DNA from: Shigella phage vB_SdyM_006
Length of the DNA: 64,000 bases
Direction: 5' to 3' (one strand)
Sequence record: MK295204
Shown here: positions 12,653 to 36,416 of the stretch, piece after piece
Layout of the letters: each line of letters opens with the position of its first letter
How positions within the stretch are numbered: the stretch's first letter is position 1
Position numbers and translations under genes: made by a program
Notes under the pieces: generated by a model
Seen by the model: only the letters and a program-made list of their open reading frames with translations
Databases searched by the model: none
Told to the model about the DNA's origin: nothing

Positions 12653-12832
12653 TTAAAAAGTCATTTTGCAATGTCGACATTTATATTTTAAGTCTTTATA
12701 TTGCCATGATACTAATTGCACCTGGTTTGTCCCACACCCCGGACAGTGCGGAATATTTTTAGAAGCATCTTCACGACGCTTCACCATTTCTTCTACTTTT
12801 TCCCAATTAATAATATCTTTATGAAGAACCAT
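12653..12832 (-). CDS. Small zinc-ribbon protein (below ORF-track size cut-off)
   Basis: My own translation: about 59 aa with CPGC ... CRHC; fills the gap between flanking ORFs. Confidence 0.4.
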   Translation of the reverse strand: MVLHKDIINWEKVEEMVKRREDASKNIPHCPGCGTNQVQLVSWQYKDLKYKCRHCKMTF

Positions 12833-12834
12833 TA

Positions 12835-13830
12835 TTATTCCTTAAAATTGTAGTAGCTTTTTACTTCTTGTAAATAAACATCATGGATAAACTTATTCCA
12901 AAATTCTGTATCAACCTGTTTAGGCATACCATTTTTAGCAGCAATTATTGCTTTCTTTTCAACATCATCTACAATTGCTTCTAAATTCTGTTGAACGAGT
13001 TTAAAATCGATTTTACCTTGTTTGATATCTAATATTTGTCCTGACATTTTTAATGGCATAACTAAATCGCCAGTATCATAGATTTCGGCTAATTGTACAC
13101 CTGCTCTATATGCATGGCTTAAAGCTTTCCAATCAATACCTTCATTAGCTTCTGCTTTACGAGCTCGTTCGCCATAATTTTGTTCTAGTTTAACAAGAAC
13201 TTTGTTGAATTCAGCATTAGTGAGTGTATCTTGGAATTTTCGGTCTAATAGGCTATAAAATGTTTGTTTACCCGTTTTTTCATTTTCTGTGCTTGTCCAG
13301 AATGCAACACTTGATTTAGGAAGAGCACCTTTCATATGTTCTAAACGAATTGGTGCTCCATTATCAAACACAGGACCCCAGTCATTTGAAACTTTTAACG
13401 CAGCTCTTAACGCAGCTAATCTTGAACCTTTTACACCGTATTTCGATGCCTGTTTACGAACATATCCTAAATAGGCCTTCATATTAGTTGTATAAAATCT
13501 CGAACGATTATCTCTAATAAACCGCCATACTTCTGGTAAATCAGAATGAATGACCATTTGGTCTGGTGCATGGATTAAATCAAGCGCTACGGTTTCACCA
13601 GATGCCGCTAGGTTTAAAAAGTATTTTAACGAATATAATTCATGATCAACATCATCTGAAGTGTTCTTAGATGACCCAGGATTGGTATTCATGTTAAAAT
13701 GCTCTTTAACACGACATGAAATAATACTTTTGGCATCTGGAATATAAATTTCTTTATAATCTAAATCCGATTCTGGAGTACTAGTTCCATATAAATGAGA
13801 ACCAAATAAAATTTTTGCTACAGATTTCAT
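12835..13830 (-). CDS. Pol-beta-superfamily nucleotidyltransferase-like protein
   Basis: 331 aa; N-terminal FGSHLYGTSTPESDLDY fits the GS-x(9-13)-DxD NTase motif, with a later ALDLIH acidic motif. Confidence 0.65.
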   Translation of the reverse strand: MKSVAKILFGSHLYGTSTPESDLDYKEIYIPDAKSIISCRVKEHFNMNTNPGSSKNTSDDVDHELYSLKYFLNLAASGETVALDLIHAPDQMVIHSDLPEVWRFIRDNRSRFYTTNMKAYLGYVRKQASKYGVKGSRLAALRAALKVSNDWGPVFDNGAPIRLEHMKGALPKSSVAFWTSTENEKTGKQTFYSLLDRKFQDTLTNAEFNKVLVKLEQNYGERARKAEANEGIDWKALSHAYRAGVQLAEIYDTGDLVMPLKMSGQILDIKQGKIDFKLVQQNLEAIVDDVEKKAIIAAKNGMPKQVDTEFWNKFIHDVYLQEVKSYYNFKE

Positions 13831-13832
13831 TA

Positions 13833-14306
13833 TTATTCCTGTTCTTGTAAAGAATTAATAGTATCATTATAAATTCGTTTAGCTTTTTCTTTGTCCGAAA
13901 CGTATCCAAAAAGATAATCTAAAGCTTCTTTCGAAATATCTTGATACTTCACTTTCCACTCTTTGTAGTATTCGGTCAATTGCTGGTCTTTTTTAAACAA
14001 TTCATCTAATAAAGGAATGACTTTTTTATAATGGAAAATACAGGTTCCAATAACTTCCGAAATGTATTCATCTTTAACAGGAGTGCCAGACGTAATTAAA
14101 TTATCTGTGATTTGTAAATTAAAGAACGCTGTTTTGCAATCTGATAACACTGGATTGTTAAAAGCATACAAGTCTTCACATAATTCAGTTATTCGTTTTT
14201 CTGCTTTCTTTTGTTTTGCTGACGGGTTAACAAGCCCACCGAATAATTGGATTGGAGGATATTTTGCAATATTAGAAATAAAAGTTCTTTGTAATTGTAA
14301 AGACAT
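13833..14306 (-). CDS. Hypothetical protein
   Basis: 157-aa ORF coupled to the upstream NTase gene. Confidence 0.5.
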   Translation of the reverse strand: MSLQLQRTFISNIAKYPPIQLFGGLVNPSAKQKKAEKRITELCEDLYAFNNPVLSDCKTAFFNLQITDNLITSGTPVKDEYISEVIGTCIFHYKKVIPLLDELFKKDQQLTEYYKEWKVKYQDISKEALDYLFGYVSDKEKAKRIYNDTINSLQEQE

Positions 14307-14315
14307 ACTTTATCC

Positions 14316-14534
14316 TTATAATAAAACCCATTTGCCATTGTAGTTATTATCATCATTATCTGTAGACACAATAAGATGATCACCGTCAGTCCAAAGTTTA
14401 ATTTTGTAAAGATCATCGCATATACGCCTAGCGTAGTAAATTCTGTTTTCTTCAATGCCATTAACTAAGTTATTATGGTCATCTTTATTACTAATACAGC
14501 CTAATTTAACTAATTGTGTCATTCTTTCATCCAT
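14316..14534 (-). CDS. Hypothetical protein
   Basis: 72-aa ORF. Confidence 0.4.
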   Translation of the reverse strand: MDERMTQLVKLGCISNKDDHNNLVNGIEENRIYYARRICDDLYKIKLWTDGDHLIVSTDNDDNNYNGKWVLL

Positions 14535-14752
14535 CCATACACAGAATATTTAATTTTAAAATCCATTTCTTCAGAATATGTATATGACTGTGTCATTCTA
14601 TTATACTCAACAACTATATCTTTAGCGTTTGGATTTGAAAAAATAGCTACAGGATTTAATCCCATAGCAGAATAAACAACATCACTTTTAAATTTATAAT
14701 CTAAGCCATTAACTTTGTATACTTTATTTTCTTTTAACATTGTGGTTCCCAT
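14519..14752 (-). CDS. Hypothetical protein
   Basis: 77-aa ORF. Confidence 0.4.
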   Translation of the reverse strand: MGTTMLKENKVYKVNGLDYKFKSDVVYSAMGLNPVAIFSNPNAKDIVVEYNRMTQSYTYSEEMDFKIKYSVYGWMKE

Positions 14753-15312
14753 TTTAAATTAAAGGCGTCCATTGCTGTGTTATCGGAGCTGCGAATAAGA
14801 ATTGGTTCTTTATCGTCTTCTTGTATTAATACAGTCTTATCTGTTAAATACAAAACTTTAAATTGTTTGCCTTTATTCGAAGTGATAACATCATCTTCTT
14901 TAAGTTGTACCCAAGAATAGCCTTTAGTTTCTTTTGACCAGGTCATATCGGATAAATTAATCGGATTATTATTTTTATAAACTGTCAAAATCATATTTGC
15001 AGGAATTATAATAGACCCTGAAGAAATAAACTCATATAAATTGACACCTTTAAAAGATGACATGATGTTCCCAAGAACAGCACCAGAGCTAAATTGTTTA
15101 GAAATCACGCTTATTGTATCTCTTAAAGGACTTACATAAATTACTTTGGCCTTAAGACGAAATGGAAGAGCAGTGTTTTGATATAAAGGGGCCCACATAT
15201 CTATAGGGTCTTTAATTGGCTTTTCTGATAAAATAATTTCAATTTGATCATCTTCTTTTAAATGAACCGCTGTTTTAGTTGTAGTTCCGTATTTACTTTG
15301 TAAAATAGCCAT
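14734..15312 (-). CDS. Hypothetical protein
   Basis: 192-aa ORF. Confidence 0.5.
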   Translation of the reverse strand: MAILQSKYGTTTKTAVHLKEDDQIEIILSEKPIKDPIDMWAPLYQNTALPFRLKAKVIYVSPLRDTISVISKQFSSGAVLGNIMSSFKGVNLYEFISSGSIIIPANMILTVYKNNNPINLSDMTWSKETKGYSWVQLKEDDVITSNKGKQFKVLYLTDKTVLIQEDDKEPILIRSSDNTAMDAFNLKWEPQC

Positions 15313-15482
15313 TATGCACCTTGATATACTTGTTCAATAATTAATTTAAGTTTTAATGCATCTTCTTTAGATAAAACAACAAGGTCATCATCTTGTTCAA
15401 TAATAAAATTATCGGTTTTATCTGAAATGCCTGCTTTAAAATCATCACTAATAAATTTATTTCCAATCCACATAATTTCTCC

Positions 15483-15500
15483 AAAAAAGGCCTTTCGGCC
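15483..15500 (-). terminator. Hairpin GGCC-TTTC-GGCC plus U-run on minus strand
   Basis: Read directly; just after the stop of the 15506-16228 gene. Confidence 0.45.
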
Positions 15501-15505
15501 TTGTA

Positions 15506-16228
15506 TTATTTAAATTCGATAAAGTTACAATGTTTGCCTTTAAAAGATTCATGGATTTCTTCAGTTAAAGATTTCTCACGTAATTCAATATCTTTTTTGA
15601 TATTAGTATGTTCTAAACGAGCTTTAAGTTTTCTTTGTGCAATCTTTTTAGGGATATAATCACAGAATAGCCAAACACCGCCAACAATAATGACAAACAC
15701 AAGACAACATACAACTGCAAATAGAATAGCACCTAGAATATAAGCACCGATTGTTAATCCAGTTCCAAGAGTAATACCATAATAAGTAAGAATATTAATT
15801 AATGCTGTTCCACCTAAAGAACCAAAAGCACCACATAAAGCAGCAATAAGGAATGTAAAGAACAAACTTCGACCTAATAAATTCCAGAAATACCCACAGA
15901 TGCTTTTTGGCATACTAGCTTTAGGTGTAATTAATTTAGTTAATTTATAGTGCCAAGTATCTTTTTTAATTTCAATTTTCGGTGCAACAGAAGATAATCT
16001 GATGTCAACAATATCATTACCCCAGATATGATACTCATTATCAATAACTTTAAAATCTGTATTAACAATATAGCCATTTGAAAATACAAAGATATCGTGT
16101 TTATTAGATTTAGCGAGTTCAATTAAATTATTTGCAATTATAGATGCTTCTTCTTTAGTGGCCCATTCAGAATTAATACGGTGCCATTTAGGAGTTTCGG
16201 TATTAATTAAAAGTTCAATAGTATACAT
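15506..16228 (-). CDS. Membrane protein (soluble N-domain plus two TM helices plus charged C-tail)
   Basis: 240 aa; long hydrophobic stretches LFFTFLIAALCGAFGSLGG and GAILFAVVCCLVFVIIVGGVWLF. Confidence 0.55.
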   Translation of the reverse strand: MYTIELLINTETPKWHRINSEWATKEEASIIANNLIELAKSNKHDIFVFSNGYIVNTDFKVIDNEYHIWGNDIVDIRLSSVAPKIEIKKDTWHYKLTKLITPKASMPKSICGYFWNLLGRSLFFTFLIAALCGAFGSLGGTALINILTYYGITLGTGLTIGAYILGAILFAVVCCLVFVIIVGGVWLFCDYIPKKIAQRKLKARLEHTNIKKDIELREKSLTEEIHESFKGKHCNFIEFK

Positions 16229-16446
16229 TATATTTCCTTAAAAGAGTTTAGTAAAGCTTTAAATCTACGAAGTTCATCAATATCTGCACCAGAAGTTATA
16301 ACACCACTAAATTCAAAAGCATAGTCAAATTCGTCTTTATATTTGTGTTGAATTAAAACTGTTTGACGACGATTTAACGGTCCATAATTAATAATGCGTT
16401 TTGTTCTAACAGGAACACCTTCGGTAATTTCAGTTTTTATTTCCAT
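16228..16446 (-). CDS. Hypothetical protein
   Basis: 72-aa ORF. Confidence 0.4.
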   Translation of the reverse strand: MEIKTEITEGVPVRTKRIINYGPLNRRQTVLIQHKYKDEFDYAFEFSGVITSGADIDELRRFKALLNSFKEI

Positions 16447-16708
16447 CTCGGTTCTCTAGCTCTGTCTCTGGTAAACAAGAAATGCCAGAAGAAGCGTTTT
16501 GATATGAGGCCATGACCCAACATGTCACTTTATACTCAGAATCTTTAATTTTAAAAATAGTTGGCTCATACTCAAACTTGTACCAGCCGGATTTAGATTT
16601 AAGGCTGATTGATGTTGTCTTTACATCTAAGACATCTAATGTTTTTTGTTTATCTTCGGCATAAGCACTAACAGATAAAGCAACTAACAAAGCAATTAAG
16701 TACTTCAT
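16430..16708 (-). CDS. Secreted/periplasmic small protein
   Basis: 92 aa with N-terminal signal peptide MKYLIALLVALSVSAYA. Confidence 0.5.
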   Translation of the reverse strand: MKYLIALLVALSVSAYAEDKQKTLDVLDVKTTSISLKSKSGWYKFEYEPTIFKIKDSEYKVTCWVMASYQNASSGISCLPETELENRDGNKN

Positions 16709-16915
16709 TTAAAGCCCTTTATTCTTAATAAAATGAGTATTCCATGTATTTGAATTGAATGCCCAGATTAAAATAGCAAGCCATCCAAAAACAGTCCATC
16801 CAAAAACAAAGTTAGCAATAAAAATAGAAGTCTTTGCACAATGATCTCTGTACCATGCCACAAAGAATGGTAAAAAATAAACAACAACTAAAGCTATCAG
16901 AGTTAAAAGTTCCAT
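16709..16915 (-). CDS. Small membrane protein (two TM)
   Basis: 68 aa, two hydrophobic helices. Confidence 0.45.
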   Translation of the reverse strand: MELLTLIALVVVYFLPFFVAWYRDHCAKTSIFIANFVFGWTVFGWLAILIWAFNSNTWNTHFIKNKGL

Positions 16916-17109
16916 TACTGTTCCTTTTTAATTAAACGAGATGCATAAGGAATTTCGTCATTAAATTTAATAAAACGTTCTTTTTCAATGAGAAGTCCAA
17001 GACCATAAACAACTATACCAGTTAAACCAGTATACATAACAATATACTCCATAGATTCAACAATAATTGTATCACCTATGTTAATAAGACCTAATTCTGA
17101 TAGCTTCAT
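16915..17109 (-). CDS. Small membrane protein
   Basis: 64 aa with one hydrophobic segment. Confidence 0.4.
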   Translation of the reverse strand: MKLSELGLINIGDTIIVESMEYIVMYTGLTGIVVYGLGLLIEKERFIKFNDEIPYASRLIKKEQ

Positions 17110-17110
17110 T

Positions 17111-17296
17111 TTAACCTCTATCTTTTAAAGATTGACGACGTTGGTCGTATTGATATTCTTGAACAAGACGTTCTATTTGTGACTGTGACAGAACTACACA
17201 ATCATGACCTTGGTCTAGCATATACGAACCAGATTCGGTAGATGTTACTCTTACATCTAAGTTTCTGTTTTTATTATCAACCAAATAAAAATGCAT
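17111..17296 (-). CDS. Hypothetical protein
   Basis: 61-aa ORF. Confidence 0.35.
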   Translation of the reverse strand: MHFYLVDNKNRNLDVRVTSTESGSYMLDQGHDCVVLSQSQIERLVQEYQYDQRRQSLKDRG

Positions 17297-17422
17297 TAAT
17301 CCTCCAGAAACTGCTTTTTATGTTTTTGTTTACGATTTGAATCTTGTTCACATTTCTTTTTATCTTTGTGAACTGAAGCACGATTAAAGTCGTGTTTAGC
17401 TACAAAATTATTTTGTTTCATA

Positions 17423-17686
17423 TTACCTCAACTGTGAGTCTTTAGAACCACGTCTGTTGTAATAAGATGTGGTTATAATATCATGACTTTCTTGACAAGT
17501 ACAACAATAATTACAATTTTTTATTATTTGTCTACGACGTTCAGGGATCTCTTCACCACAATCAAGACAGTATATATCATTATTTGAAGAAGAATTGAGC
17601 AGGCTTAACCTGGCCCACTCAATAGCATCTTTTATGATAGCTTCTTTAGTTGCAAAACTATCATCTGAAGGACCCCATCCGTTCAT
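17423..17686 (-). CDS. TraR/DksA-family C4 zinc-finger protein
   Basis: 87 aa; CLDCGEEIPERRRQIIKNCNYCCTC matches the CxxC-x17-CxxC DksA/TraR finger. Confidence 0.55.
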   Translation of the reverse strand: MNGWGPSDDSFATKEAIIKDAIEWARLSLLNSSSNNDIYCLDCGEEIPERRRQIIKNCNYCCTCQESHDIITTSYYNRRGSKDSQLR

Positions 17687-18001
17687 TTAAGCACCTATAA
17701 AAACCATCATTGCAGCAATAAGAACATTTTCATGAGAAGCCGATAAATCAAAAGTAAATGTAGTAGGGCCTACATGTTTAAGATTTTTATACGCAGCTGG
17801 GTTAAGATGTTCTTCAAAATTAATAGAAATATTGTGTTTGCTCATAATAGGTAAAGCTTGTTCAACGTTAAAACACGGATTAAAAATAATCCAAGAATCA
17901 CGAAGACGGATTTCAAAATTGTGCTTAAAGCAAACCACTTCCAGGCCTAATTTTTCTGCTACTTTTTTATTAAGATAAAATACATTTTCTGCACTAATCA
18001 T
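17687..18001 (-). CDS. Hypothetical protein
   Basis: 104-aa ORF. Confidence 0.45.
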   Translation of the reverse strand: MISAENVFYLNKKVAEKLGLEVVCFKHNFEIRLRDSWIIFNPCFNVEQALPIMSKHNISINFEEHLNPAAYKNLKHVGPTTFTFDLSASHENVLIAAMMVFIGA

Positions 18002-18570
18002 TTCTGCACCATAAAATTGTAAATAAATCGATAAACATCATCAGGGTTTTTCTGTTCCCAGATATCTAATTTTGGCTCATGGGAGACAATCTTCTGATAA
18101 TGATTGTGCACATTTAAATGATTTTGATGAAGCCAATTAACAAATGCTTGGCCAATTCGCTGAGTACCCTTATCAGCTTCTTTATCCCAATACATGTACC
18201 AATCATGCATGTCACAGTAATTTAAAAGTTTAGGGATGTCTTTTTGAAGAGAATCAATAAATTTTTGTTTTTCATGCGCAGATAATGCTTCGTAATCATC
18301 AAGAGTCATTGTGGGCTCACATTTTGTATTGCTGAATTTTAAAGCATCTACATACATATTAAAGGCTTTAACATTTTTATTTCCATTAAAACCTAAATCA
18401 TCAATGCAGACGGTTTTGACTTGTAGGTTATTAGTCAGAACAGAAATACTTCTGTTAGATGGATTCCAATGACTAACAACTTCATATTCAATAACATTTT
18501 TATTTTGGCCTGAAACACCAACATAAAACTTTTTACCGATATTTAAATCAGTCAGTTTAATACTAGACAT
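17998..18570 (-). CDS. Hypothetical protein (N-terminus resembles the 19228-19839 ORF)
   Basis: 190 aa; N-terminal K-L-x-DL-x-G-x-x-FYVG motif shared with the 19228-19839 product. Confidence 0.5.
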   Translation of the reverse strand: MSSIKLTDLNIGKKFYVGVSGQNKNVIEYEVVSHWNPSNRSISVLTNNLQVKTVCIDDLGFNGNKNVKAFNMYVDALKFSNTKCEPTMTLDDYEALSAHEKQKFIDSLQKDIPKLLNYCDMHDWYMYWDKEADKGTQRIGQAFVNWLHQNHLNVHNHYQKIVSHEPKLDIWEQKNPDDVYRFIYNFMVQK

Positions 18571-18803
18571 AAATCACCGTTTAAAGTTTTTAGAATGATA
18601 AGATTTATCTTGAGCAACTGGTAAGTCAAGAACGTCAGAAATACCAATTTTAGCTGGGCGAGCTGTCAGCCTATCTTGGACATCAACTTTCTTTTCAAAC
18701 TGACCAGCTAACAGGTAATATAAACGATCATTAGACATAATTCTCTCCATTTGTTTTAATGAGGCTATACTATTACAAAATATAGCCTTTGTACACTTAT
18801 TTT

Positions 18804-19227: not shown

Positions 19228-19839
19228 TTATTGTCCCTCTACTTTTTTAGTCATGGAATCAAAAACTAAACCAACACTTTCATTCAAAACAGATTTTAAA
19301 GAATTAAACATCTGTCCATCATTCATATGACTCAACCGATCATAAGCGACCCAACCTGCATCATTAGTAAATGTACCCCATTCAGATTCAAAAAATGCAC
19401 GAACTTTCTCGATTTCTTCTTTAGTTGGCACTTTTAATCCAACAAAAGTGTCTTCTAATTTTTGTTCCAAGTTACGAGACGTTTCTCTGTATACTGCTTC
19501 TAAAGAACCAATAAGAATTGACGGATCACGAGTATACGCTAAAGCTTCTTCATAAGTATAAAATGAAAAGTGATTATTGTAACGAGAACGATCAGGATTA
19601 GGCATAATGATGTTCATATCTTGTAAAGAACGCTTAACAATTTGGTCTGGGTCATAAGGCGATTTACAATCTACCCACCAGGCCCATGCCTCAGTATATC
19701 TGAATTTTTCATTGTATGGCAAAGAAACAACGGTCAATTTAACTGCATTATTAATATTAGAACCACTAATAGTTTGACCATACCCAACATAAAAAGTAAA
19801 TCCAGGAACAAGGTCTTCAAACTTAACATTCTTAATCAT
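19228..19839 (-). CDS. Hypothetical protein (N-terminus resembles the 17998-18570 ORF)
   Basis: 203 aa; FTFYVGYGQ N-terminal motif. Confidence 0.5.
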   Translation of the reverse strand: MIKNVKFEDLVPGFTFYVGYGQTISGSNINNAVKLTVVSLPYNEKFRYTEAWAWWVDCKSPYDPDQIVKRSLQDMNIIMPNPDRSRYNNHFSFYTYEEALAYTRDPSILIGSLEAVYRETSRNLEQKLEDTFVGLKVPTKEEIEKVRAFFESEWGTFTNDAGWVAYDRLSHMNDGQMFNSLKSVLNESVGLVFDSMTKKVEGQ

Positions 19840-19868
19840 GATAATTCTCCTTTGATTTGATAAAGCTT

Positions 19869-19897
19869 ATAATATCATAGACCAAGGCAAAGTAAAC
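19869..19897 (-). promoter_or_regulatory. T4-type early promoter (minus strand): -35 GTTTAC, 17-nt spacer, -10 TATTAT, A-rich upstream
   Basis: Minus-strand reading GTTTACtttgccttggtctatgaTATTAT, about 30 nt upstream of the 19839 start codon and just after a terminator hairpin. Confidence 0.5.
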
Positions 19898-19914
19898 AAT
19901 TATTTTCATTTAAA

Positions 19915-21438: not shown

Positions 21439-21651
21439 TTATTCCTTAATCCATTTAACCCAAAGAACACATTCTGCTTCTTTAGGTTTACCTGTTTTTG
21501 TTTTATAAGTATATACTACTTTGTGTTCTAAAAATTTAATAGGGTCTGTTAAGCCTACCCATGTCTTAGTTTCTCTAATAGATTCATGATGACTCAGAGA
21601 AATAAGGCGTCCTTCTTTTTCCATTTTAAATGGATGCGGTAAATGTGTCAT
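21439..21651 (-). CDS. Hypothetical protein
   Basis: 70-aa ORF immediately upstream of tk. Confidence 0.45.
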   Translation of the reverse strand: MTHLPHPFKMEKEGRLISLSHHESIRETKTWVGLTDPIKFLEHKVVYTYKTKTGKPKEAECVLWVKWIKE

Positions 21652-21767
21652 TCAAATGTACCTCTAAAAGCAAAAAATATACAAATAGCCAAAACTGGAA
21701 AAAGAATAACAGAAACTAAGGTATTAATAAACAATTCGCTAAGTAAAAATTCCATATTTGTTCCAAA

Positions 21768-22208
21768 TTATTTTAATTCTTTAAATCTCATTTTATCATG
21801 ACCATCTATTCGATAAGTCCCGTATTGTCCAACATTATCCACTATATTAACAACAATTTCACCATTGCAAACTCTAAATAGTCTAGCAAGTTTAGTCACT
21901 TCATACTTATTGATAATAAACTGGGGACCAAGAATGTCCCCATGAACTGCTCGATTACACCCAGAAACAAAAAATTTACCATTAGGAATAGATATAGAAT
22001 CAGAATGGTCAATTAAAGAATAAAATGTTGCTCCAAAGACACGTTTTTTAGGTTGCCAAACAATTTCTATATTTGACTTTTTGAGACCTGCATTTTCTAT
22101 CAAAGACCCAGATATTCCGTATAATTTAGGATTTACATATCCTGGGACTTCATACCATGAGAAAGTGCAAGAACTAAAAAATATAAGACATGCTAATAAG
22201 TATTTCAT
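21768..22208 (-). CDS. Secreted protein/lipoprotein of unknown function
   Basis: 146 aa; signal peptide MKYLLACLIFFSSC. Confidence 0.5.
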   Translation of the reverse strand: MKYLLACLIFFSSCTFSWYEVPGYVNPKLYGISGSLIENAGLKKSNIEIVWQPKKRVFGATFYSLIDHSDSISIPNGKFFVSGCNRAVHGDILGPQFIINKYEVTKLARLFRVCNGEIVVNIVDNVGQYGTYRIDGHDKMRFKELK

Positions 22209-23949: not shown

Positions 23950-24318
23950 CTAAATTGTATCAGTAAATGTTCTGTTAATTACATCTTCTTTCTGTTCATC
24001 AGTTAAAGAATTAAATCTAACAGCGTATCCAGAAACTCGGATAGTTAACTGTGGGTATTTTTCTGGATTTTCTCTTGCGTCTAATAACATTTCTTTGTTC
24101 AATACATTAACATTTAGATGCTGGCCACCTTCGATTCGTGGAGCAAATTCTAAAGCTAAATCTTTTTGAGTAGAATTACCAAATGAAGTCATTGGAACAA
24201 CTTCATCTTCTTTAAAATATTTTGATGCTAAAATTCTACAATTATTTGTTTCTGTATCTACTAAAAAGATTGTTCCATAAAAAGGACCAGAAACAAGTTG
24301 TCTTGCTTGAATTGACAT
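23950..24318 (-). CDS. Autonomous glycyl radical cofactor (GrcA/YfiD-like)
   Basis: 122 aa; [11 protein letters not shown] ... [31 protein letters not shown] closely matches E. coli GrcA including the RVSGY glycyl-radical motif. Confidence 0.85.
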
Positions 24319-24484
24319 TATTTTACCTCGTACATGTATGGATTAGTATCGTTAATATCTTTAACAAATCCATAGAATTTTTTATTGACATATAATGCAA
24401 TAGCATTTTTATGTTGGACCCATGCTAAATTATATAACTTATCAGAATTACCAAACGCACCTTTAGCTTCATTTAAAATCATAA

Positions 24485-24973
24485 TCAACACCCAATAAAA
24501 TATATAATAGGATAATAGCCAGTAAAAGCTATTGTACTTGTTAAAGCATCAATAAAATCAAAAGTGTTAAGTCCCATAGGTTCTTCAATAATAAAAATTG
24601 GAGAATTTAAACAACGGCCTCTAAAACGATTATGCCAACTTGGATTGGATAATGCTCTTCTGGAAGCTTTAATAAACTCTACACTTTTAATAGGTTTAAT
24701 GCCTGTCTTTTCAACATGGCCATTATATTTTAGTTTTGTGTCTAAAGCAGTATGCCCGATAATAAAAATATCTCTATGTGGATTTCTTAGTTTTTGTTCT
24801 AAAGCAAATTCTGATATTTGAGTAGATTTGTAAGTTTGACGTCCAAAATCAAGTTTGCATTGACGATATTCATAAACTACACTAAATATTGAACGTGTTA
24901 CCGTCCTCATTTTATTAGTATCATTTGCTTCACATTTATCTAAAAATTGTGTCATTAAATCATAGTAGTTCAT
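24485..24973 (-). CDS. Hypothetical protein
   Basis: 162-aa ORF; no recognised motif. Confidence 0.5.
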   Translation of the reverse strand: MNYYDLMTQFLDKCEANDTNKMRTVTRSIFSVVYEYRQCKLDFGRQTYKSTQISEFALEQKLRNPHRDIFIIGHTALDTKLKYNGHVEKTGIKPIKSVEFIKASRRALSNPSWHNRFRGRCLNSPIFIIEEPMGLNTFDFIDALTSTIAFTGYYPIIYFIGC

Positions 24974-25164
24974 TTGTTTCTCCTAATGGCCTTACTAGAT
25001 GAAATAGTAAGGCGTAGTGATAATTTAAGTTAAAATAGCCTTTTCTAATATTTCTGCTTTGGTCCAAGTAATGCCAAAACATTCCATTGGCGTTTTATCG
25101 TTAGTAAATAAATTGTTTACTAGTTGTTTGCACTCAATTTCTATGAGTTTTAAATCGGTTTCTG

Positions 25165-25347
25165 TCATAGATTTACTTCTTTAATTACAATTTTTTCGCT
25201 ATACCCAGGATAATCACATTTAATATAACTATCTTGGGATAATTTACTTTCAAACATCCAATCTTCTAATTGTTGTTCACCAGAACATGACATAAAGGCC
25301 ATAAACGATTCGGCTAAATGGTCATCAATCTCTATAGTAATTTGCAT
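25165..25347 (-). CDS. Hypothetical acidic small protein
   Basis: 60-aa ORF coupled to the M15 peptidase gene. Confidence 0.35.
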   Translation of the reverse strand: MQITIEIDDHLAESFMAFMSCSGEQQLEDWMFESKLSQDSYIKCDYPGYSEKIVIKEVNL

Positions 25348-29774: not shown

Positions 29775-30025
29775 TTTATTTCCTTACATGTATTAGTTTC
29801 AAAATCAACAATAATATTTTTACGTTCAATGCCAAGATTAATTAATTTAGAAATACATTGACCTTGGATTTTTTGGTCTTCTAAACCTTTAGAAACACTT
29901 TTAGATAATGCACTCCATGAAAAACAAATAACTATTAAAATAACACATCCAATTAAATATTTCATGATATACTCCATTTGTTTTGATGTGTCTATAGTAT
30001 TATAGATTTTTTGTGTTGTAAACAT
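29771..30025 (-). CDS. Small secreted protein
   Basis: 84 aa; internal Met followed by signal-peptide-like MKYLIGCVILIVICFSWSALS. Confidence 0.4.
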   Translation of the reverse strand: MFTTQKIYNTIDTSKQMEYIMKYLIGCVILIVICFSWSALSKSVSKGLEDQKIQGQCISKLINLGIERKNIIVDFETNTCKEIK

Positions 30026-30031
30026 TTATTT

Positions 30032-30950: not shown

Positions 30951-31374
30951 TATAGAAGTCTAATTCATTGGTATACTTAGAATTTACATAAATTTGTTTA
31001 TTTTTACTAAAACCTGAAATACCTTTTAAAACACCTTTGGCTTGATTATAGTCTATAAAGAACACATGTTCTTTATTATCGTACATAAATCTTAAAGCAA
31101 AAGTATCTTTATAGATATTAGATTCTTTTGTAACGATAGAATTAGTAGATTTATCAAGTGGCAAATTACATGCAAGAGCACAAGTATACTCACACTCATA
31201 TAATGTCACATAATTTGTATTAGTATACAAAAAATCTAGAATCTCATCAGAGGTCCAAGCTTTCTCAATATCATTTCCTAGAACACGTAGTTTCCAAAAA
31301 GTGGATTGACGTATATCAGCCCAGATAACATTATTATCTTTGCCTGCTTCAGGTCCTTTAAAAATATCAATCAT
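30904..31374 (-). CDS. Paralog family member 1 of 3
   Basis: 156 aa; same family (CNLPL, VFFIDYN, YIEKCRRKIK). Confidence 0.5.
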   Translation of the reverse strand: MIDIFKGPEAGKDNNVIWADIRQSTFWKLRVLGNDIEKAWTSDEILDFLYTNTNYVTLYECEYTCALACNLPLDKSTNSIVTKESNIYKDTFALRFMYDNKEHVFFIDYNQAKGVLKGISGFSKNKQIYVNSKYTNELDFYIEKCRRKIKGHTHEK

Positions 31375-31664
31375 TATATCCTCTCACAAAAAGCCCAATT
31401 AGCATGATAAACTGAAGCGCCTTTAGTATCATTCATGCACACTAAGTCTACAGGAGACACCACTCTATATAAAACAGGTTCTCCACCTAATGAACGCGCA
31501 GCTCTTCCGGCATAAATTTTAGCCAAACCTAAATCTTCAGTAAAGAAAACTCGGTCTAAATTTTTCTTACGTCCTTTTTCAGAAATAGTCTCAGTTGTTT
31601 CTGGTGGAAGTAACATATGTTCAATACCACATACAGAAGAAGAACCATGATAAAAAGTTTTCAT
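31374..31664 (-). CDS. Possible Arr/Tpt1-like mini ADP-ribosyltransferase
   Basis: 96 aa; N-terminal FYHGSS and downstream R-V-F-F-T ... YRVV-P resemble the rifampin ADP-ribosyltransferase (Arr) core as I remember it; not verified. Confidence 0.4.
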   Translation of the reverse strand: MKTFYHGSSSVCGIEHMLLPPETTETISEKGRKKNLDRVFFTEDLGLAKIYAGRAARSLGGEPVLYRVVSPVDLVCMNDTKGASVYHANWAFCERI

Positions 31665-31732
31665 TATAGACTCCGTTTTTAAATTATGTAGCTATTATAC
31701 ACACAATTTTTAATTTGTACATACTATAAACG

Positions 31733-31754
31733 AAAAAAGGAACCAAAAGGTTCC
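31733..31754 (-). terminator. Hairpin GGAACC-UUUU-GGUUCC plus U6 on minus strand
   Basis: Read directly; after the stop of the 31762-32178 ORF. Confidence 0.45.
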
Positions 31755-31761
31755 TTTAATT

Positions 31762-32178
31762 TTAGATACATCCACCACAAGAACTATGTCGCCAATCTTC
31801 TTCGTTAATATGTGGATAAAGAGCATATAAGATTTTTTCGATATCTTTAAATCCATGTCTTTTTAAAGACGAAACTAATGAGTTAGTATCGTGTTTCAAC
31901 ATTAATTGGACCCAACTTTCTGGACTTAACCCTGCTGTATAAGAATCCCATTCTTCAGACCAATTATCGTCAAAACGCCAGGTGTCATAAGATTTACGTG
32001 TATCAAATTCTTCATTACCTAAACCAGTTAGGCTAATTCCATCGATACTAATATTCCATTGTCCAAAGCATAGCGTTGGATAAGACCCAGTCCACTCTAC
32101 AAAAATTTTCATGTAATTCCTTATAAACATACCACAATTGCAGTTAAAAATATAAAAACCATAACAGGAACATACCAA
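31762..32178 (-). CDS. Hypothetical cysteine-rich protein
   Basis: 138-aa ORF (real start may be the internal MKIFVEW); Trp/acidic-rich with C-terminal SSCGGCI. Confidence 0.4.
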   Translation of the reverse strand: MVCSCYGFYIFNCNCGMFIRNYMKIFVEWTGSYPTLCFGQWNISIDGISLTGLGNEEFDTRKSYDTWRFDDNWSEEWDSYTAGLSPESWVQLMLKHDTNSLVSSLKRHGFKDIEKILYALYPHINEEDWRHSSCGGCI

Positions 32179-32230
32179 ATGGTTTTTATAGCATCATTAG
32201 GTTTTTCTGAGTCAAACATGATAATCTCGA

Positions 32231-32584
32231 TTAATAATAAATAGTATTCCCAACATAAATTTTGTTTGGATTTGTAATATTATTTAAAATTTGTAAATAT
32301 TCAACAGACACGCCAAGGTTCATAGCAATTTCGCTCAGTGTGTCATTAAATCGTACTGTATATGAAAATAAATTTGAATCACGATTAATTGACGCAGTTA
32401 AAAAATCAACAGAATTCAGAACTTCAAAAGTCATCGCTTTGTCGTTGCCACTATTAAAGCCAATACCACGCTTAAGAATAGAAACGATAGTTGTACCTTC
32501 ACCTGTTTCAGAAGCACCGATGATGTTACGTGTATCAACCATAAAACGTGATAAATCATCTGCAGAAGTTAAAATAATTTTCAT
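32231..32584 (-). CDS. LysM-domain protein
   Basis: 117 aa; C-terminal YTVRFNDTLSEIAMNLGVSVEYLQILNNITNPNKIYVGNTIYY fits the LysM consensus. Confidence 0.55.
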   Translation of the reverse strand: MKIILTSADDLSRFMVDTRNIIGASETGEGTTIVSILKRGIGFNSGNDKAMTFEVLNSVDFLTASINRDSNLFSYTVRFNDTLSEIAMNLGVSVEYLQILNNITNPNKIYVGNTIYY

Positions 32585-32593
32585 AGTATTTCC

Positions 32594-32986
32594 TTACCAA
32601 GAATAAGCAAAACCTGCACCAAGAGTAGAATTAGATTTGTTATCAAATGCACCAGACATTTTTAATGTTACATTTGTGTTTTCTGGATGAGCACCAAAAG
32701 CGACAGCTACAGCTGAACCAGATTTATAACCACCAACACCTAAGCCTAAAGAAATGGTTTTAGAAAAATCTAATGGAACATTATTCATAGCAGAAGCAGA
32801 AGCAAATCCAGCTTTTACTTGGTCCATTTTTCCGTCAACATCTTTAATATATCTATTCCAGGATTCATTTACAGTTCCTTCGTGAAAAGTATGATTAAGA
32901 TTTGGACTAATCCAATTATTATCTGATGCAATTGAACCAGAACTCAAAACTAATAATGAAGCCATAAAAATAAATTTTAAATTCAT
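32594..32986 (-). CDS. Small outer-membrane protein with YadA-like (trimeric autotransporter) C-terminal anchor
   Basis: 130 aa; signal peptide MNLKFIFMASLLVLSSGSIA, then GLGVGGYKSGSAVAVAFG ... NVTLKMSGAF ... GAGFAYSW ending in a C-terminal aromatic, resembling the YadA anchor beta-strand pattern. Confidence 0.55.
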   Translation of the reverse strand: MNLKFIFMASLLVLSSGSIASDNNWISPNLNHTFHEGTVNESWNRYIKDVDGKMDQVKAGFASASAMNNVPLDFSKTISLGLGVGGYKSGSAVAVAFGAHPENTNVTLKMSGAFDNKSNSTLGAGFAYSW

Positions 32987-33127
32987 AATTTTTTCCTTGT
33001 TTGTTTAAAGTAGAAACACTATATCATAGATTATATAAAAGCTAAATTTCTTTTATTTTAAAAACAAAAAAGGTCCAACATTTCTGTGGACCTTAAAAGC
33101 AACTTCTTTTATTATTTATTTTAAATT

Positions 33128-33204
33128 TGGTACACCTACGGGAATTCGAATCCCGGTTACACGCTCGAAAGGCGTGGGTCCTAGACCACTAGACGATAGG
33201 TGCA
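33128..33204 (-). tRNA. tRNA-Glu (anticodon UUC)
   Basis: Manual fold: acceptor GCACCUA/UAGGUGU, anticodon stem CACGC with loop CUUUCGA, T-loop UUCGAAU, encoded CCA. Confidence 0.7.
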
Positions 33205-33210
33205 TTAAAA

Positions 33211-33302
33211 TGGAGGAGAGTATGGGATTCGAACCCATGGAACAGCGTAACTGTCCAACGGTTTTCAAGACCGTCTCAATAATCCATCTCTGACAACTCT
33301 CC
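33211..33302 (-). tRNA. tRNA-Ser (anticodon UGA), class II
   Basis: Perfect acceptor GGAGAGU/ACUCUCC, anticodon loop CUUGAAA, long variable arm, T-loop UUCGAAU, CCA. Confidence 0.8.
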
Positions 33303-33309
33303 AATATAA

Positions 33310-33627
33310 TTAAAACAGTAGACTATAAACAGTACCTTTACAATCTATAGGTTGTGTTTTTGAATATTCTTTAAATAGATTTAAATAACCAATTTCTTCA
33401 GGTTCCCATTGTCCTTCTAAACCATAACATGAACAATGTGAGCCGTTAACTTCCCAAAATATATCATTACTATCTTTGAAGATTACAGTAGCATACCCAG
33501 AATAATCTTCATAATCGTAATATGCTAAAATGATTTCTTTGTCATTAAGTGAATCCATAGGGATTTGGAATTCATGACAGATGTCTTCTTTTGAAGTAAA
33601 CAGTTCCATAAACACATTAGTTTTCAT
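33310..33627 (-). CDS. Hypothetical protein between tRNA genes
   Basis: ORF track gives 33310-33720, but the N-terminal part overlaps tRNA-Asp; trimmed to internal Met (about 105 aa). Confidence 0.4.
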   Translation of the reverse strand: MKTNVFMELFTSKEDICHEFQIPMDSLNDKEIILAYYDYEDYSGYATVIFKDSNDIFWEVNGSHCSCYGLEGQWEPEEIGYLNLFKEYSKTQPIDCKGTVYSLLF

Positions 33628-33650
33628 ATCAATATCCTCAAAATTAATTT

Positions 33651-33726
33651 TGGCGGTCTTACCGAGAATCGAACTCGGTGCTGTTCCGTGACAGGGAACT
33701 ATGTTAACCAGGTACACCATAAGACC
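33651..33726 (-). tRNA. tRNA-Asp (anticodon GUC)
   Basis: Acceptor GGUCUUA/UAAGACC, anticodon stem GUUCC with loop CUGUCAC, T-loop UUCGAUU, CCA. Confidence 0.8.
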
Positions 33727-33756
33727 TTAAAAATGTACCCATCCGGCTTTCCAGTC

Positions 33757-33857
33757 TGGTGAAGGGTTGTCACCTCTAGTTTAAACCTGCTAGTCAAGTA
33801 ATAATTGCATATCGTCCAATTATCAAAACCGTCTAGGTTATATTACACCACTTCCTA
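33757..33857 (-). ncRNA. Possible small stable RNA in the tRNA cluster (not foldable as a canonical tRNA)
   Basis: About 100 nt between tRNA-Asp and tRNA-Gly, begins with tgg (CCA-like 3' end on minus) and contains local hairpins; T4 carries small stable RNAs in the equivalent position. Confidence 0.2.
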
Positions 33858-33919
33858 GAATACCGTCTAAGCGGACTTGATCGACGTAGATTACACCATA
33901 TACGTCTGATTGTGGAATT

Positions 33920-33993
33920 TGGAGCGATCTACGGGTATCGAACCCGTATCTTCTGGGTGGAAACCAGAAATAATAGCCATTATACTAAGATCG
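33920..33993 (-). tRNA. tRNA-Gly (anticodon UCC)
   Basis: Perfect acceptor GCGAUCU/AGAUCGC, anticodon stem UCUGG with loop UUUCCAC, T-loop UUCGAUA, CCA. Confidence 0.8.
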
Positions 33994-34615
33994 CATATTT
34001 ATTAATAAATCTTCTTGCTTGGGTATGACTTAATCCTATATGTTTAGCAAATTTATTTAAGTTACCTCTTATTGAAATATCAAATGATTTTAATATTTCT
34101 AATCTATAATTAATTTCGTCTTTTGACAATGTAGAGGCATTATTAATAGAAATTTTGTTTTTAGATATATCCGAATGTCTCTTATTTTTAAAACCAAACG
34201 AATTTTTCTTTTTGCTAAAATCATATAATCCGAGTCTAAGTCTTTTCTTAAATGTATTAACTTGTTTACTTATAGTTAATTTAGATTTTGGCAATGAATT
34301 TATATAATCCCAACCACCTTCACCACCAACTTTTAAATTATATGTATTTTTGCTTTTAACAAATTTTTCTGTAACTATTTTGGCTTCATGTATAAACATG
34401 TCATACTTATTTTTATGAAATTTTAAAATAGTTTTTTCAAAATTTTCTTTGCCATATTTTTCTATGGCTTTTTTCAAAATCTTACCTGAACCAAAATATC
34501 CATCTTCTAAATCTTTGGTTTTATGAACACCTATATAAATTTTATTATTTATTTTATTTTTAATTTTGTATGTATAATAAAACATTATAGCCTTATTTAT
34601 CTTTTGGTACTCCAT
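33980..34615 (-). CDS. GIY-YIG homing endonuclease (seg-like) inside the tRNA cluster
   Basis: 211 aa; N-terminal YTYKIKNKINNKIYIGVHKT ... GYFGSG is a GIY-YIG motif; lysine-rich C-terminal DNA-binding region. Confidence 0.75.
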   Translation of the reverse strand: MEYQKINKAIMFYYTYKIKNKINNKIYIGVHKTKDLEDGYFGSGKILKKAIEKYGKENFEKTILKFHKNKYDMFIHEAKIVTEKFVKSKNTYNLKVGGEGGWDYINSLPKSKLTISKQVNTFKKRLRLGLYDFSKKKNSFGFKNKRHSDISKNKISINNASTLSKDEINYRLEILKSFDISIRGNLNKFAKHIGLSHTQARRFINKYAILV

Positions 34616-34779
34616 TCTTTATTAGTTGCTTTATTAACAGCAGTAGAATAAGAATTTTTAATATCTTCTGTAACAGAATAGCCAGTTAACATAGTAGAAA
34701 TTAAAATAACATATCCAAGCATTAATAAAATACAAGATAAAAATCCTGCAATAATAAGAATTGTACCTAAAGTAGTCAT
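34597..34779 (-). CDS. Small membrane protein (trimmed from the 34597-34890 ORF, which overlaps a tRNA)
   Basis: Internal Met yields about 60 aa with one long hydrophobic helix. Confidence 0.35.
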   Translation of the reverse strand: MTTLGTILIIAGFLSCILLMLGYVILISTMLTGYSVTEDIKNSYSTAVNKATNKEWSTKR

Positions 34780-34798
34780 ATTGTTCTCACAAATTATT

Positions 34799-34875
34799 TG
34801 GTGACCCACCATGGAATCGAACCATGCTCCAACGCTTATGAGGCGTTCGCTTTCAACCAGTAAGCTAGAGGGCCT
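34799..34875 (-). tRNA. tRNA with anticodon CAU (Met or Ile2-type)
   Basis: Anticodon stem AACGC/GCGUU with loop CUCAUAA, T-arm CAUGG-UUCGAUU-CCAUG, CCA; acceptor has one mismatch. Confidence 0.65.
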
Positions 34876-34882
34876 TGCAATT

Positions 34883-34966
34883 GGTGGCACCGGGTAGACT
34901 CGAACTACCGAAGGCCGAAGCCTGGAGATTTACAGTCTCCTGTCATTGCCGCTAGACTACGATGCC
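34883..34966 (-). tRNA. tRNA-Tyr (anticodon GUA), class II
   Basis: Anticodon stem GGAGA/UCUCC with loop CUGUAAA, long variable arm, acceptor GGCAUCG/CGGUGCC, CCA. Confidence 0.7.
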
Positions 34967-35011
34967 TTTTCTTATCAATAACGACTAAAAATAATCGTTA
35001 TTAATCAGAAT

Positions 35012-35088
35012 TGGTACACACTACTGGATTCGAACCAGTGACCTACGGTTTAGAAGACCGTTGCTCTATCCATCTGAGCTAAGCATGC
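35012..35088 (-). tRNA. tRNA-Arg (anticodon UCU)
   Basis: Anticodon stem ACGGU/ACCGU with loop CUUCUAA, T-loop UUCGAAU, CCA; acceptor stem has three G-U pairs. Confidence 0.6.
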
Positions 35089-35089
35089 A

Positions 35090-35380
35090 TTATAAGTACT
35101 GTTTAATCAGTTCTTCGTTATTTTTAAAAAGAATAAAAATATTATCACGAACTTCAGTATCTGAGATATGCCATTTCATAGCATCAATTAAAATGTCTTT
35201 TGGGATCATATTATATAAATTATTTAGTAAAGCAATATTATTTATATCAATATCAACTTCAAATAATTCAAAAATACAACACGAAATAGAATCATAAAAA
35301 TCTTTAATGTCTATTTCATACTTAGACAAATTATTTATAAATTCTGTTTTAGCTTGTTCTGGATTATGTGCTTTAAACAT
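35090..35380 (-). CDS. Hypothetical protein
   Basis: 96-aa ORF between tRNA-Arg and tRNA-Trp. Confidence 0.45.
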   Translation of the reverse strand: MFKAHNPEQAKTEFINNLSKYEIDIKDFYDSISCCIFELFEVDIDINNIALLNNLYNMIPKDILIDAMKWHISDTEVRDNIFILFKNNEELIKQYL

Positions 35381-35402
35381 TTTTATTCCTATTATTCTAA
35401 AA

Positions 35403-35477
35403 TGGCAGGCTCTGTAGGAATCGAACCCACGTCTTCGGATTTGGAATCCGGTATTCTACCGACTGAACTAAGAACCT
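35403..35477 (-). tRNA. tRNA-Trp (anticodon CCA)
   Basis: Anticodon loop UUCCAAA, D-arm UAGUUCAGUCGGUAGAAU, T-loop UUCGAUU, CCA. Confidence 0.7.
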
Positions 35478-35478
35478 T

Positions 35479-35562
35479 TGGCGGGCAGTGTAGGATTCGA
35501 ACCTACGTCGTCAAATGACACGGATTAACAGTCCGCTGCTTAATCCACTCAGCCAACTACCC
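35479..35562 (-). tRNA. tRNA-Asn-like (anticodon GUU) with an unusually long variable arm
   Basis: Anticodon arm CGGACUGUUAAUCCG is nearly identical to E. coli tRNA-Asn, but the variable region is about 13 nt (GUCAUUUGACGAC), giving 84 nt. Confidence 0.55.
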
Positions 35563-35859
35563 AATAATTTTTGCATCTTCTGAATAACTAGAAATACTAC
35601 CCCATTCTGAAGTATTAAATGAAACTTTATTTCCGTTTTTGAACTCTATAACTATATTTATATTGTCAACAGAAATCTCATTATCAGATGATTCTCTTTC
35701 TGAGGTTTTTAAATATGTATCCATAGTTTCAATAGTCACTTCTTCTGTTTGAAGAAGAGGTGAATAGTACTCAGCTAAATAAACTTTATTTACAATATCA
35801 CCAAAAATAGTTTTAGCAATATCAGTTAATTTAGTTGTTTCTTTTAATAAATGTTTCAT
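35557..35859 (-). CDS. Hypothetical protein (start trimmed to internal Met)
   Basis: ORF track gives 35557-35898; about 100 aa from MKHLLKETT. Confidence 0.4.
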   Translation of the reverse strand: MKHLLKETTKLTDIAKTIFGDIVNKVYLAEYYSPLLQTEEVTIETMDTYLKTSERESSDNEISVDNINIVIEFKNGNKVSFNTSEWGSISSYSEDAKIIG

Positions 35860-35922
35860 AATATGTCCTTCACATGGAGTAGAAATTAATAATAACACAA
35901 ATAATATGAAAGCATTTCTGTT

Positions 35923-36276
35923 TTAATATTTGTGTTTTGTTTTTCTAACTAATGTAACCTGAAAAGGTGTTTCCATACAATATGTATGGACAACAGAATC
36001 TTTGTCACGATTATGATAATATGGATAATAAGCTACACGATAACCTTCACGCGTAAATCCTAATAGAACGCCAACACTTAGTCCTTTACCGCCACCTATA
36101 GATGAGTAAGAGACAATATCACCAGGACTAATATGATTACCGATCATATCGTGTTTAGGTGTCCCTTGCGTCAACTTGTGGTGCATTTCGTATAGTTCAG
36201 GGTCTGTCTTTAAAATTTCAGAAAAACCTAATTGGTTCTCTGCCTTAAACAGAGAAAAAGCTTCTTGAATTGTCAT
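35923..36276 (-). CDS. Hypothetical protein
   Basis: About 117 aa; the ORF-track start is a GTG one codon upstream. Confidence 0.45.
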   Translation of the reverse strand: MTIQEAFSLFKAENQLGFSEILKTDPELYEMHHKLTQGTPKHDMIGNHISPGDIVSYSSIGGGKGLSVGVLLGFTREGYRVAYYPYYHNRDKDSVVHTYCMETPFQVTLVRKTKHKY

Positions 36277-36416
36277 CACCAGCCCTCGTCTTCGCGTTCT
36301 TGATAATTATAATAAGTATCACGTTCTTCGCCGTTAGATTCTTTTTTGGATTGATTTTCAAAAAAACGTTGTAGTTCTCTTGCTTCTCGGATTTCTTTTT
36401 CTGTCATAGTATATCC

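Follow-up and report, generated by a model that had tools for sequence, protein, structure and literature searches.

We analyzed a 64,000-nucleotide (nt) stretch of the genome of Shigella phage vB_SdyM_006 (MK295204), referred to here as the window, and find that four open reading frames (ORFs) of fewer than 60 amino acids (aa) are very likely ordinary small protein-coding genes of a dense, leftward-transcribed early block of the T4 type. All four lie on the minus strand: ORF1 (12653-12832; 59 aa), a four-cysteine (CPGC...CRHC) protein of the zinc-ribbon type; ORF2 (18574-18738; 54 aa from its probable start); ORF3 (21648-21755; 35 aa), a predicted single-pass membrane microprotein; and ORF4 (36276-36407; 43 aa), which is highly charged. 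Three of these genes are strongly supported, and ORF3 is probable. A preliminary description had presented the four frames as likely real, a judgment that our analysis supports and that has the fitting strength for ORF3, since this frame is conserved but its substitution test is nonsignificant. From their frames, translation signals, and homologies, we infer that the four ORFs are translated and what some of them may do. Each has its own Shine-Dalgarno (SD) sequence and lies only a few bases from its neighbors, so ribosomes would pass from gene to gene. GenBank/RefSeq annotations and PHROGs already contain all four genes; ORF1, ORF2, and ORF4 are annotated in the nearest published genome, that of Proteus phage phiP4-3, and ORF3 in its sister phages.

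Small ORFs in a T4-like early block

Between positions 12000 and 22000, the window is 99.5% identical to phiP4-3 (MG696114/NC_055737; Straboviridae, Bragavirus) and approximately 80% identical to Proteus phages Pm5461, PM2, and SJ_PmiM, and on sequence grounds we assign it to the T4-like Proteus phage type (Straboviridae, Bragavirus). Collinearity with phiP4-3 holds at 98% over 11958-33726, is lost across a tRNA cluster (33726-36032), and resumes at 92% around ORF4. The minus strand carries every gene between approximately 12 and 42 kb, ORF1 to ORF4 included. This block is recognizable as the classic T4 early block because the annotation of relatives and of T4 shows the same gene order, i.e., tRNAs, e, denV, regB, vs, tk, and rI through to nrdC. 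Its 58 junctions include 12 overlaps of 4 nt, 8 overlaps of 1 nt, and 18 spacers of 0 to 15 nt, longer spacers being a minority (11/58). Tight junctions are therefore the norm in the block, and the small ORFs match this local style. The short early ORFs mobD.2 (34 aa), mobD.2a (38 aa), and 49.1 (51 aa) of T4 are of the same kind, tiny and tightly packed in the same block; the first two, being annotated in T4, show that genes this short are normal in genomes of this type. The T4 region compared showed no sequence similarity to ORF2, ORF3, or ORF4.

The preliminary description had the four frames filling their gaps exactly and sharing the ATGA or TAATG coupling of their neighbors. Coupling of this kind is found at ORF3, which ends in an ATGA shared with the 70-aa DUF7202 gene downstream, and at ORF4, which has a one-base TGATG overlap with the downstream 117-aa gene. 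It does not extend to ORF1 (2 nt upstream and 13 nt downstream) or ORF2 (65 nt upstream and 3 nt downstream, TGAtttATG), and the 65-nt spacer upstream of the latter, which bears a promoter-like element, also departs from exact gap filling; tight packing is otherwise the rule of the block. The coordinates first given for ORF1, ORF3, and ORF4 are exact. Those of ORF2 (18571-18744, as a 57-aa product) are in frame, but the codon at 18744 reads AGA and positions 18571-18573 fall beyond the TGA stop; the open frame spans 18574-18750 (58 aa), with a probable protein of 54 aa from 18738.

Stop codons occur in off-frame reading of the sense strand of the block at a frequency of 0.11 per codon, and the chance that a run from a given start stays open is 0.001 for 59 codons, 0.002 for 54, 0.007 for 43, and 0.017 for 35. 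Codon-usage log-ratios are positive for all four ORFs (0.22 to 0.65, the highest being that of ORF4) and fall inside the range of held-out genes (0.37 ± 0.17), compared with -0.15 ± 0.26 for nested off-frame ORFs used as a control. In a simulation that re-placed the observed substitutions at random in 20,000 trials and counted amino acid changes without a stop, so few changes arose in fewer than 0.05% of the re-placements for ORF1, ORF2 (0/20,000), and ORF4 (p = 0.0004). For these three ORFs, the sense frame is the sole frame of six open in both compared genomes and also has the lowest ratio of nonsynonymous to synonymous differences (pN/pS; 0.08 for ORF1, 0.32 for ORF2, and 0.44 for ORF4). 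ORF1, ORF2, and ORF4 are under purifying selection, and frame conservation in related phages, the check that the preliminary description had put forward, comes out decisively in their favor. An Rfam scan of 12000-37500 returned nine tRNAs and no family overlapping ORF1 to ORF4, and our literature search found no ribosome profiling (Ribo-seq) or small-protein proteomics for T4-like Proteus phages.

ORF1, a member of the T4 NrdC.2 family

The start codon of ORF1 lies 2 nt past the stop of an RlaP-type nucleotidyltransferase gene (TAAtaATG), with an AAGGA SD sequence 7 nt upstream. The gene is annotated in phiP4-3 (phiP43_199), Pm5461 (Pm5461_069), SJ_PmiM (SJ_239), and PM2, and a tblastn search matched 1115 phage records, 1020 of them with at least 80% query coverage. 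In T4, the match (48649-48804) falls inside nrdC.2 (104 aa), with 65% aa identity over the last 52 residues. ORF1 also matches phrog_1474 (hmmscan E = 1.2e-26), where it covers profile positions 35-91 of 99, and its frame is closed 9 nt upstream of its ATG. Judged from this coverage, it is a member of the T4 NrdC.2 family that consists of the C-terminal module only, the ~100-aa architecture of the family being absent. With T4 NrdC.2 (NP_049700), ORF1 has in common both CxxC pairs, the QVQLV and KCRHC motifs, and a location in the early block near nrdC; it differs in lacking the N-terminal ~45 residues and in its upstream neighbor, which is the NrdC.11-like nucleotidyltransferase here and nrdC.3 in T4. 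Comparison with Pm5461 and SJ_PmiM gives a pN/pS of 0.06 to 0.10, with differences distributed 7/2/23 by codon position. All four cysteines (C30, C33, C52, and C55) are retained without exception from Proteus phages through T4, as they are in a 52%-identical metagenomic homologue.

The earlier wording of a zinc ribbon fits these data, given the two CxxC knuckles kept as far as T4. Searches of curated zinc-ribbon families gave no match above cut-off, the best being Zn_ribbon_SprT in Pfam (18 bits versus a cut-off of 28.1) and one of 17.5 bits versus 31.3 in NCBIfam. An AF2 model built from four sequences (mean predicted local distance difference test [pLDDT] score of 79) consists of one helix followed by short strands, and its top Foldseek matches in the PDB are all zinc-ribbon proteins (ribosomal L37Ae/eL43, eIF2-beta, Rpb9, NrdR, and Dof), all nonsignificant (E ≥0.13; TM, ~0.5). 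We regard ORF1 as a free-standing copy of the C-terminal four-cysteine NrdC.2 module, putatively zinc binding, that would most likely act as a small nucleic-acid- or protein-binding adaptor in early infection. A PDB sequence search retrieved sub-threshold Tau-repeat matches, with no stretch passing, which we take as noise. The candidate defense family PDC-S64 of PADLOC scored 18.4 and 16.3 bits over ~40 to 50 of 305 to 339 profile positions, which we do not count as membership; ORF2, ORF3, and ORF4 had no PADLOC match. In the literature, we found nrdC.2 mentioned as a map landmark only.

Two observations concern the neighbors of ORF1. In GenBank records of relatives, the RlaP-type nucleotidyltransferase (12835-13830, minus strand), a T4 NrdC.11 homologue, often carries the name "thioredoxin," as do ORF1 homologues; these labels appear to be mistaken and to have been propagated from T4 names of the form nrdC.N, which are positional. 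Directly downstream of ORF1, a 74-aa ORF (12415-12639, minus strand) encodes a predicted two-helix membrane protein; it is 100% conserved in phiP4-3 yet unannotated there (gap 121306-121553), and it is annotated in Pm5461 (068), PM2, and SJ_PmiM at 45 to 46% identity.

ORF2 and its probable promoter

ORF2 most likely starts at the ATG at 18738, because homologues begin at the second Met of the frame and phrog_15157 aligns end to end with the resulting 54-aa form (E = 3.8e-32; residues 1-54 on positions 1-55 of a 55-position profile). A GGAG SD sequence at 18748-18745 lies 6 nt before this ATG, within codons 1 and 2 of the 58-aa form. The 54-aa ORF is annotated in phiP4-3 (phiP43_183), Pm5461 (Pm5461_084), SJ_PmiM (SJ_224), and PM2, and homologues occur in T4-like phages of Proteus, Providencia, Morganella, Cronobacter, and Yersinia. 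Members of phrog_15157 (Pm5461_084, QPB12269 of Providencia phage PSTCR6, Morganella MP1_gp0083, and Cronobacter S13_136) resemble ORF2 in their length of ~54 aa, M(S/T)NERL start, and full-length match, at 56 to 70% identity only. Pairwise comparisons with relatives give a pN/pS of 0.16 to 0.26. A single-sequence structure model was uninformative (pLDDT, 58).

The spacer upstream of ORF2 contains an early-type sigma-70 promoter-like element read from the sequence, TGTACA-N17-TAGTAT (18767-18795, minus strand). Pm5461, PM2, and SJ_PmiM have (G)TTTACA-N17-TAGTAT/TAATAT at this place, where the authors' annotation of Pm5461 has a promoter. The ORF2 homologue of Providencia phage PSTCR6 is preceded by a terminator-like hairpin and T-run and then a GTTTAC -35-like hexamer, and that of Cronobacter phage S13 by a terminator-like hairpin and T-run and a GTTGCA hexamer. 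The conserved element, the Pm5461 annotation, and the layout in PSTCR6 and S13 together point to ORF2 being a promoter-proximal early gene, a position common to ORF2, its Bragavirus relatives, and the PSTCR6 homologue; transcription from this conserved early-type sigma-70 promoter would have ORF2 as its first cistron. We assessed this promoter by comparative alignment in place of a generic consensus scan; a generic promoter/terminator scan performed at chance level (64 found versus 55.8 expected) and did not include it. An inverted repeat, AGGCTATA (18788-18781) and TATAGCCT (18769-18762), overlaps the promoter-like element at its spacer and -10 region. All four Bragavirus genomes keep the repeat, Pm5461 with a change compatible with G-U pairing; it may fold as an RNA hairpin when transcription reads through, or it may be coincidental.

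In T4, RegB cuts early mRNAs at GGAG within their ribosome-binding sites, and the phage analyzed here encodes a RegB homologue. Given the GGAG site and this homologue, RegB may reasonably be expected to regulate ORF2: the motif would be cut by the phage's own RegB-type endoribonuclease, and translation of ORF2 would probably cease once the early phase is over.

ORF4 and its upstream partner

ORF4, correctly described as charged, is preceded at 6 nt by an AAGGA SD sequence and by a 9-nt spacer from the 124-aa gene directly upstream (36417-36791, minus strand). Its annotated counterpart in phiP4-3 is phiP43_138, whereas Pm5461, PM2, and SJ_PmiM lack the gene. Its pN/pS is ~0.31 to 0.44. The homologue of ORF4 in Proteus phage J3S (WWZ74761) is a 44-aa coding sequence with 60% aa identity. 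Among 50,697 phage records, the sole homologue of the 124-aa gene outside phiP4-3 is the J3S gene directly upstream of it (tblastn E = 2e-7; pairwise BLASTP, 41% over 74 aa, E = 5e-16). Both genes match adjoining J3S genes only, which suggests that they travel together. J3S (Grimontviridae) is an unrelated 91-kb phage whose flanking genes differ from those of the window, yet it has the same two genes (WWZ74760 and WWZ74761) in the same order and tightly abutted. The two versions differ in the length of the partner (82 aa in J3S versus 124 aa here) and in the C-terminal tails of the small protein. ORF4 would therefore be a charged 43-aa peptide inherited with its upstream neighbor as a cassette exchanged between unrelated Proteus phages.

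A stretch of approximately 510 bp (~36199-36712) that takes in ORF4, the bulk of the 124-aa gene, and ~77 nt at the start of the 117-aa gene has a single-base difference from phiP4-3. Its flanks are 75 to 90% identical to that phage, and the 117-aa protein is 75% identical overall. Such a near-identical stretch is a sign of a recent recombination mosaic, with a putative breakpoint inside a gene.

ORF3, a predicted membrane microprotein

The coding case for ORF3 is contextual, drawing on its strand, its ATGA overlap, its composition, and the presence of a ribosome-binding site. The hydrophobic character noted in the preliminary description is borne out by its maximum 19-residue Kyte-Doolittle mean of 2.72, the highest among the 73 ATG ORFs of 30 to 60 aa in the block. 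Residues 8-30 form the hydrophobic stretch, and T makes up 52% of the coding strand of the ORF, compared with 33% overall. A 12-nt spacer (21756-21767) separates ORF3 from the gene upstream. The ORF is 100% identical in phiP4-3, where it lies in an unannotated gap (112191-112306), and is annotated as a putative membrane protein in Pm5461 (Pm5461_091A) and SJ_PmiM (SJ_216) and as hypothetical in PM2 (ASZ76358); it matches phrog_30893 (E = 1.9e-19; residues 1-34 on profile positions 1-34 of 35), whose members Pm5461_091A and SJ_216 have the same 35-aa length and ATGA overlap with the DUF7202 gene. In Pm5461, PM2, and SJ_PmiM, the aa identity is 71 to 74%, with zero indels, and the start codon, SD sequence, and ATGA overlap are kept in all four other Bragavirus genomes. 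These three phages have a 210-nt extra gene (091B, a 69-aa membrane protein) between the 146-aa gene and ORF3, where the window and phiP4-3 have only the 12-nt spacer.

The SD sequence of the DUF7202 gene (AGAGG) sits in the last codons of ORF3. Since translation of ORF3 would end on the ATGA that starts the DUF7202 gene, crossing the ribosome-binding site of that gene, the two are probably translationally coupled. The product is predicted to be a 35-aa single-pass membrane microprotein, its C terminus probably cytoplasmic.

Outside Bragavirus, we found no relative of ORF3 in phage records (tblastn), IMG/VR, metagenome contigs, or an exhaustive HMMER search. The sole non-self match in the latter, an 834-aa repetitive protein, is regarded as compositional. 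For ORF3 and ORF4 together, IMG/VR returned phiP4-3 and Pm5461 only, metagenome and genome contigs returned nothing, and the word-indexed protein search returned self matches only.

Alternative readings

Several observations weigh against reading all four ORFs as ordinary genes of the kinds described above. The zinc-ribbon matches of ORF1 stay below threshold in both Pfam and NCBIfam, with nonsignificant fold matches (best E = 0.13), and ORF4 is supported by a single independent homologue. The remaining ones concern ORF3. This ORF is known as three distinct sequences only, all from one genus; its SD sequence is weak in this phage (GGAA), in contrast to the strong GAGGAA of Pm5461, PM2, and SJ_PmiM; its codon-usage score (0.22) is exceeded by 13% of off-frame controls; its 16 to 17 substitutions (17 of them spread 7/3/7 by codon position) cannot be told from random placement (p = 0.12 to 0.20); and its pN/pS of 0.38 to 0.41 compares with 0.45 to 0.48 in an equally open and equally conserved, phase-matched antisense frame. 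Because that antisense frame is equally open, the substitution pattern is no proof of coding. ORF3 could then be an untranslated 116-nt spacer that carries the ribosome-binding site of the DUF7202 gene, its hydrophobic-looking frame being a by-product of T-rich sequence. An open run of 35 codons arises by chance at ~1.7% per start (20 of 1445 off-frame runs are that long), other out-of-frame ORFs approach its hydropathy (2.58 to 2.67 versus 2.72), and the phiP4-3 annotators made no call here. We nonetheless regard this reading as unlikely. The ATG, SD spacing, length, and ATGA overlap are kept without indels in five genomes at ~84% nucleotide identity, although the adjoining upstream sequence differs by a whole 210-nt gene, and core replacements all stay in the hydrophobic or small class. 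ORF3 also tops 73 comparable ORFs in hydropathy and is T rich well beyond its strand, lies on the sole transcribed strand of a block with few spacers longer than 15 nt, and has been called by three independent annotations and by PHROGs. Translation of ORF3 is thus a claim that we hold with fairly good confidence, resting mainly on context; conservation of the frame, as far as it had been proposed as a check, holds for indels and signals, with nonsignificant substitution statistics.

A gene on the other strand of the ORF3 locus is hardly credible. The 52-aa plus-strand ORF (21643-21801) is open in the window and over 38 to 39 codons in relatives, at 69 to 76% identity and with the antisense pN/pS given above, but it would be a lone convergent gene in a block of ~30 kb transcribed the other way. 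It has no convincing SD sequence, in relatives it would enter the antisense of the membrane gene 091B with no conservation of length, and a T-rich sense frame encoding hydrophobic residues is expected to leave the opposite strand open as well. Equally remote is a thioredoxin/glutaredoxin-type redox function for ORF1, to which the CPGC motif, the UniRef name "Thioredoxin," the labels of several GenBank homologue records, and a weaker match to phrog_9774, "NrdC-like thioredoxin" (8.7e-12), might point. With 59 aa, ORF1 is too short for a thioredoxin fold, its predicted helix and short strands resemble zinc ribbons, and Pfam returned zero thioredoxin/glutaredoxin matches versus eleven sub-threshold ones of the zinc-ribbon type. 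The residues between the cysteines of its first pair also vary (PG, PE, PA, and IS) while the second pair, CRHC, is invariant, and the label has most likely spread from the T4 ORF name nrdC.2, which denotes only a map position beside nrdC. For ORF2, the 58-aa form starting at ATG 18750, close to the extent first given, is improbable. In the window, phiP4-3, PM2, and SJ_PmiM, the frame has no earlier ATG, but Pm5461 has TTG at the corresponding codon and no SD sequence stands ahead of 18750. Residues 2-4 of the longer form vary (ERI, EII, and EYI), while GGAG is invariant ahead of the second ATG, and the Providencia, Cronobacter, and Morganella homologues as well as the PHROG profile begin at the second Met, M(S/T)N(D/E)RL.

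Further small ORFs and neighboring features

The list of sub-60-aa ORFs first drawn up was incomplete, as a mechanical gap analysis of the block found four more gap-filling ORFs on the minus strand, all annotated in phiP4-3. Three of them have relatives in Pm5461, PM2, and SJ_PmiM: 15312-15473 (53 aa; phiP43_193; 53 to 56% aa identity), 17296-17421 (41 aa, basic; phiP43_187; 85%), and 24318-24482 (54 aa; phiP43_169; 69 to 76%), the last of which lies directly upstream, in the direction of transcription, of a GrcA-like (T4 vs.6-like) gene. The fourth, 25025-25168 (47 aa; phiP43_167), was seen only in phiP4-3 and was not found in the compared stretches of Pm5461, PM2, SJ_PmiM, and T4. Control ORFs in alternative frames of gaps (24323-24406, 24960-25082, and 19832-19909) had no match outside phiP4-3.

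The tRNA cluster contains a GIY-YIG Seg-type homing endonuclease of 211 aa (33980-34615, minus strand; Pfam SegE_GIY-YIG, 26.5 bits versus a cut-off of 25), placed as segB is in the tRNA cluster of T4, and its position is the exact point where collinearity between the window and phiP4-3 stops. Compared with phiP4-3, the cluster has tRNA-Trp and tRNA-Asn and is without tRNA-Pro. Two minus-strand ORFs of the mechanical list overlap tRNA genes, 33116-33304 (62 aa) with tRNA-Glu and tRNA-Ser and the upstream part of 34597-34890 (97 aa) with tRNA-Met; thus, the 60-aa cut-off yields false or overextended calls besides misses.

Implications

These findings matter chiefly for the quality of annotation. 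At least eight genes in the 25-kb early block escape a 60-aa cut-off (counting 25025-25168, seen only in phiP4-3), and the phiP4-3 annotation itself omits the 35-aa and 74-aa membrane ORFs that are annotated in its sister genomes. The sequence and arrangement of the four genes are routine for T4-like early regions, and what can be assigned so far is a predicted fold class for ORF1 and a predicted membrane location for ORF3. More speculatively, ORF4 and the 124-aa gene might form a small mobile cassette, possibly a host-specific takeover or counter-defense module passed horizontally, in parallel with ORF3 as a genus-restricted membrane microprotein gating DUF7202 translation. The confinement of the cassette to phiP4-3-like Bragavirus and J3S, both infecting Proteus, would fit a host-specific module, although we consider this combined picture rather doubtful.

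To conclude, two points are mildly informative: ORF1 indicates that the C-terminal four-cysteine module of NrdC.2 is able to stand alone, and ORF4 and its upstream neighbor appear to have moved together between unrelated Proteus phages.

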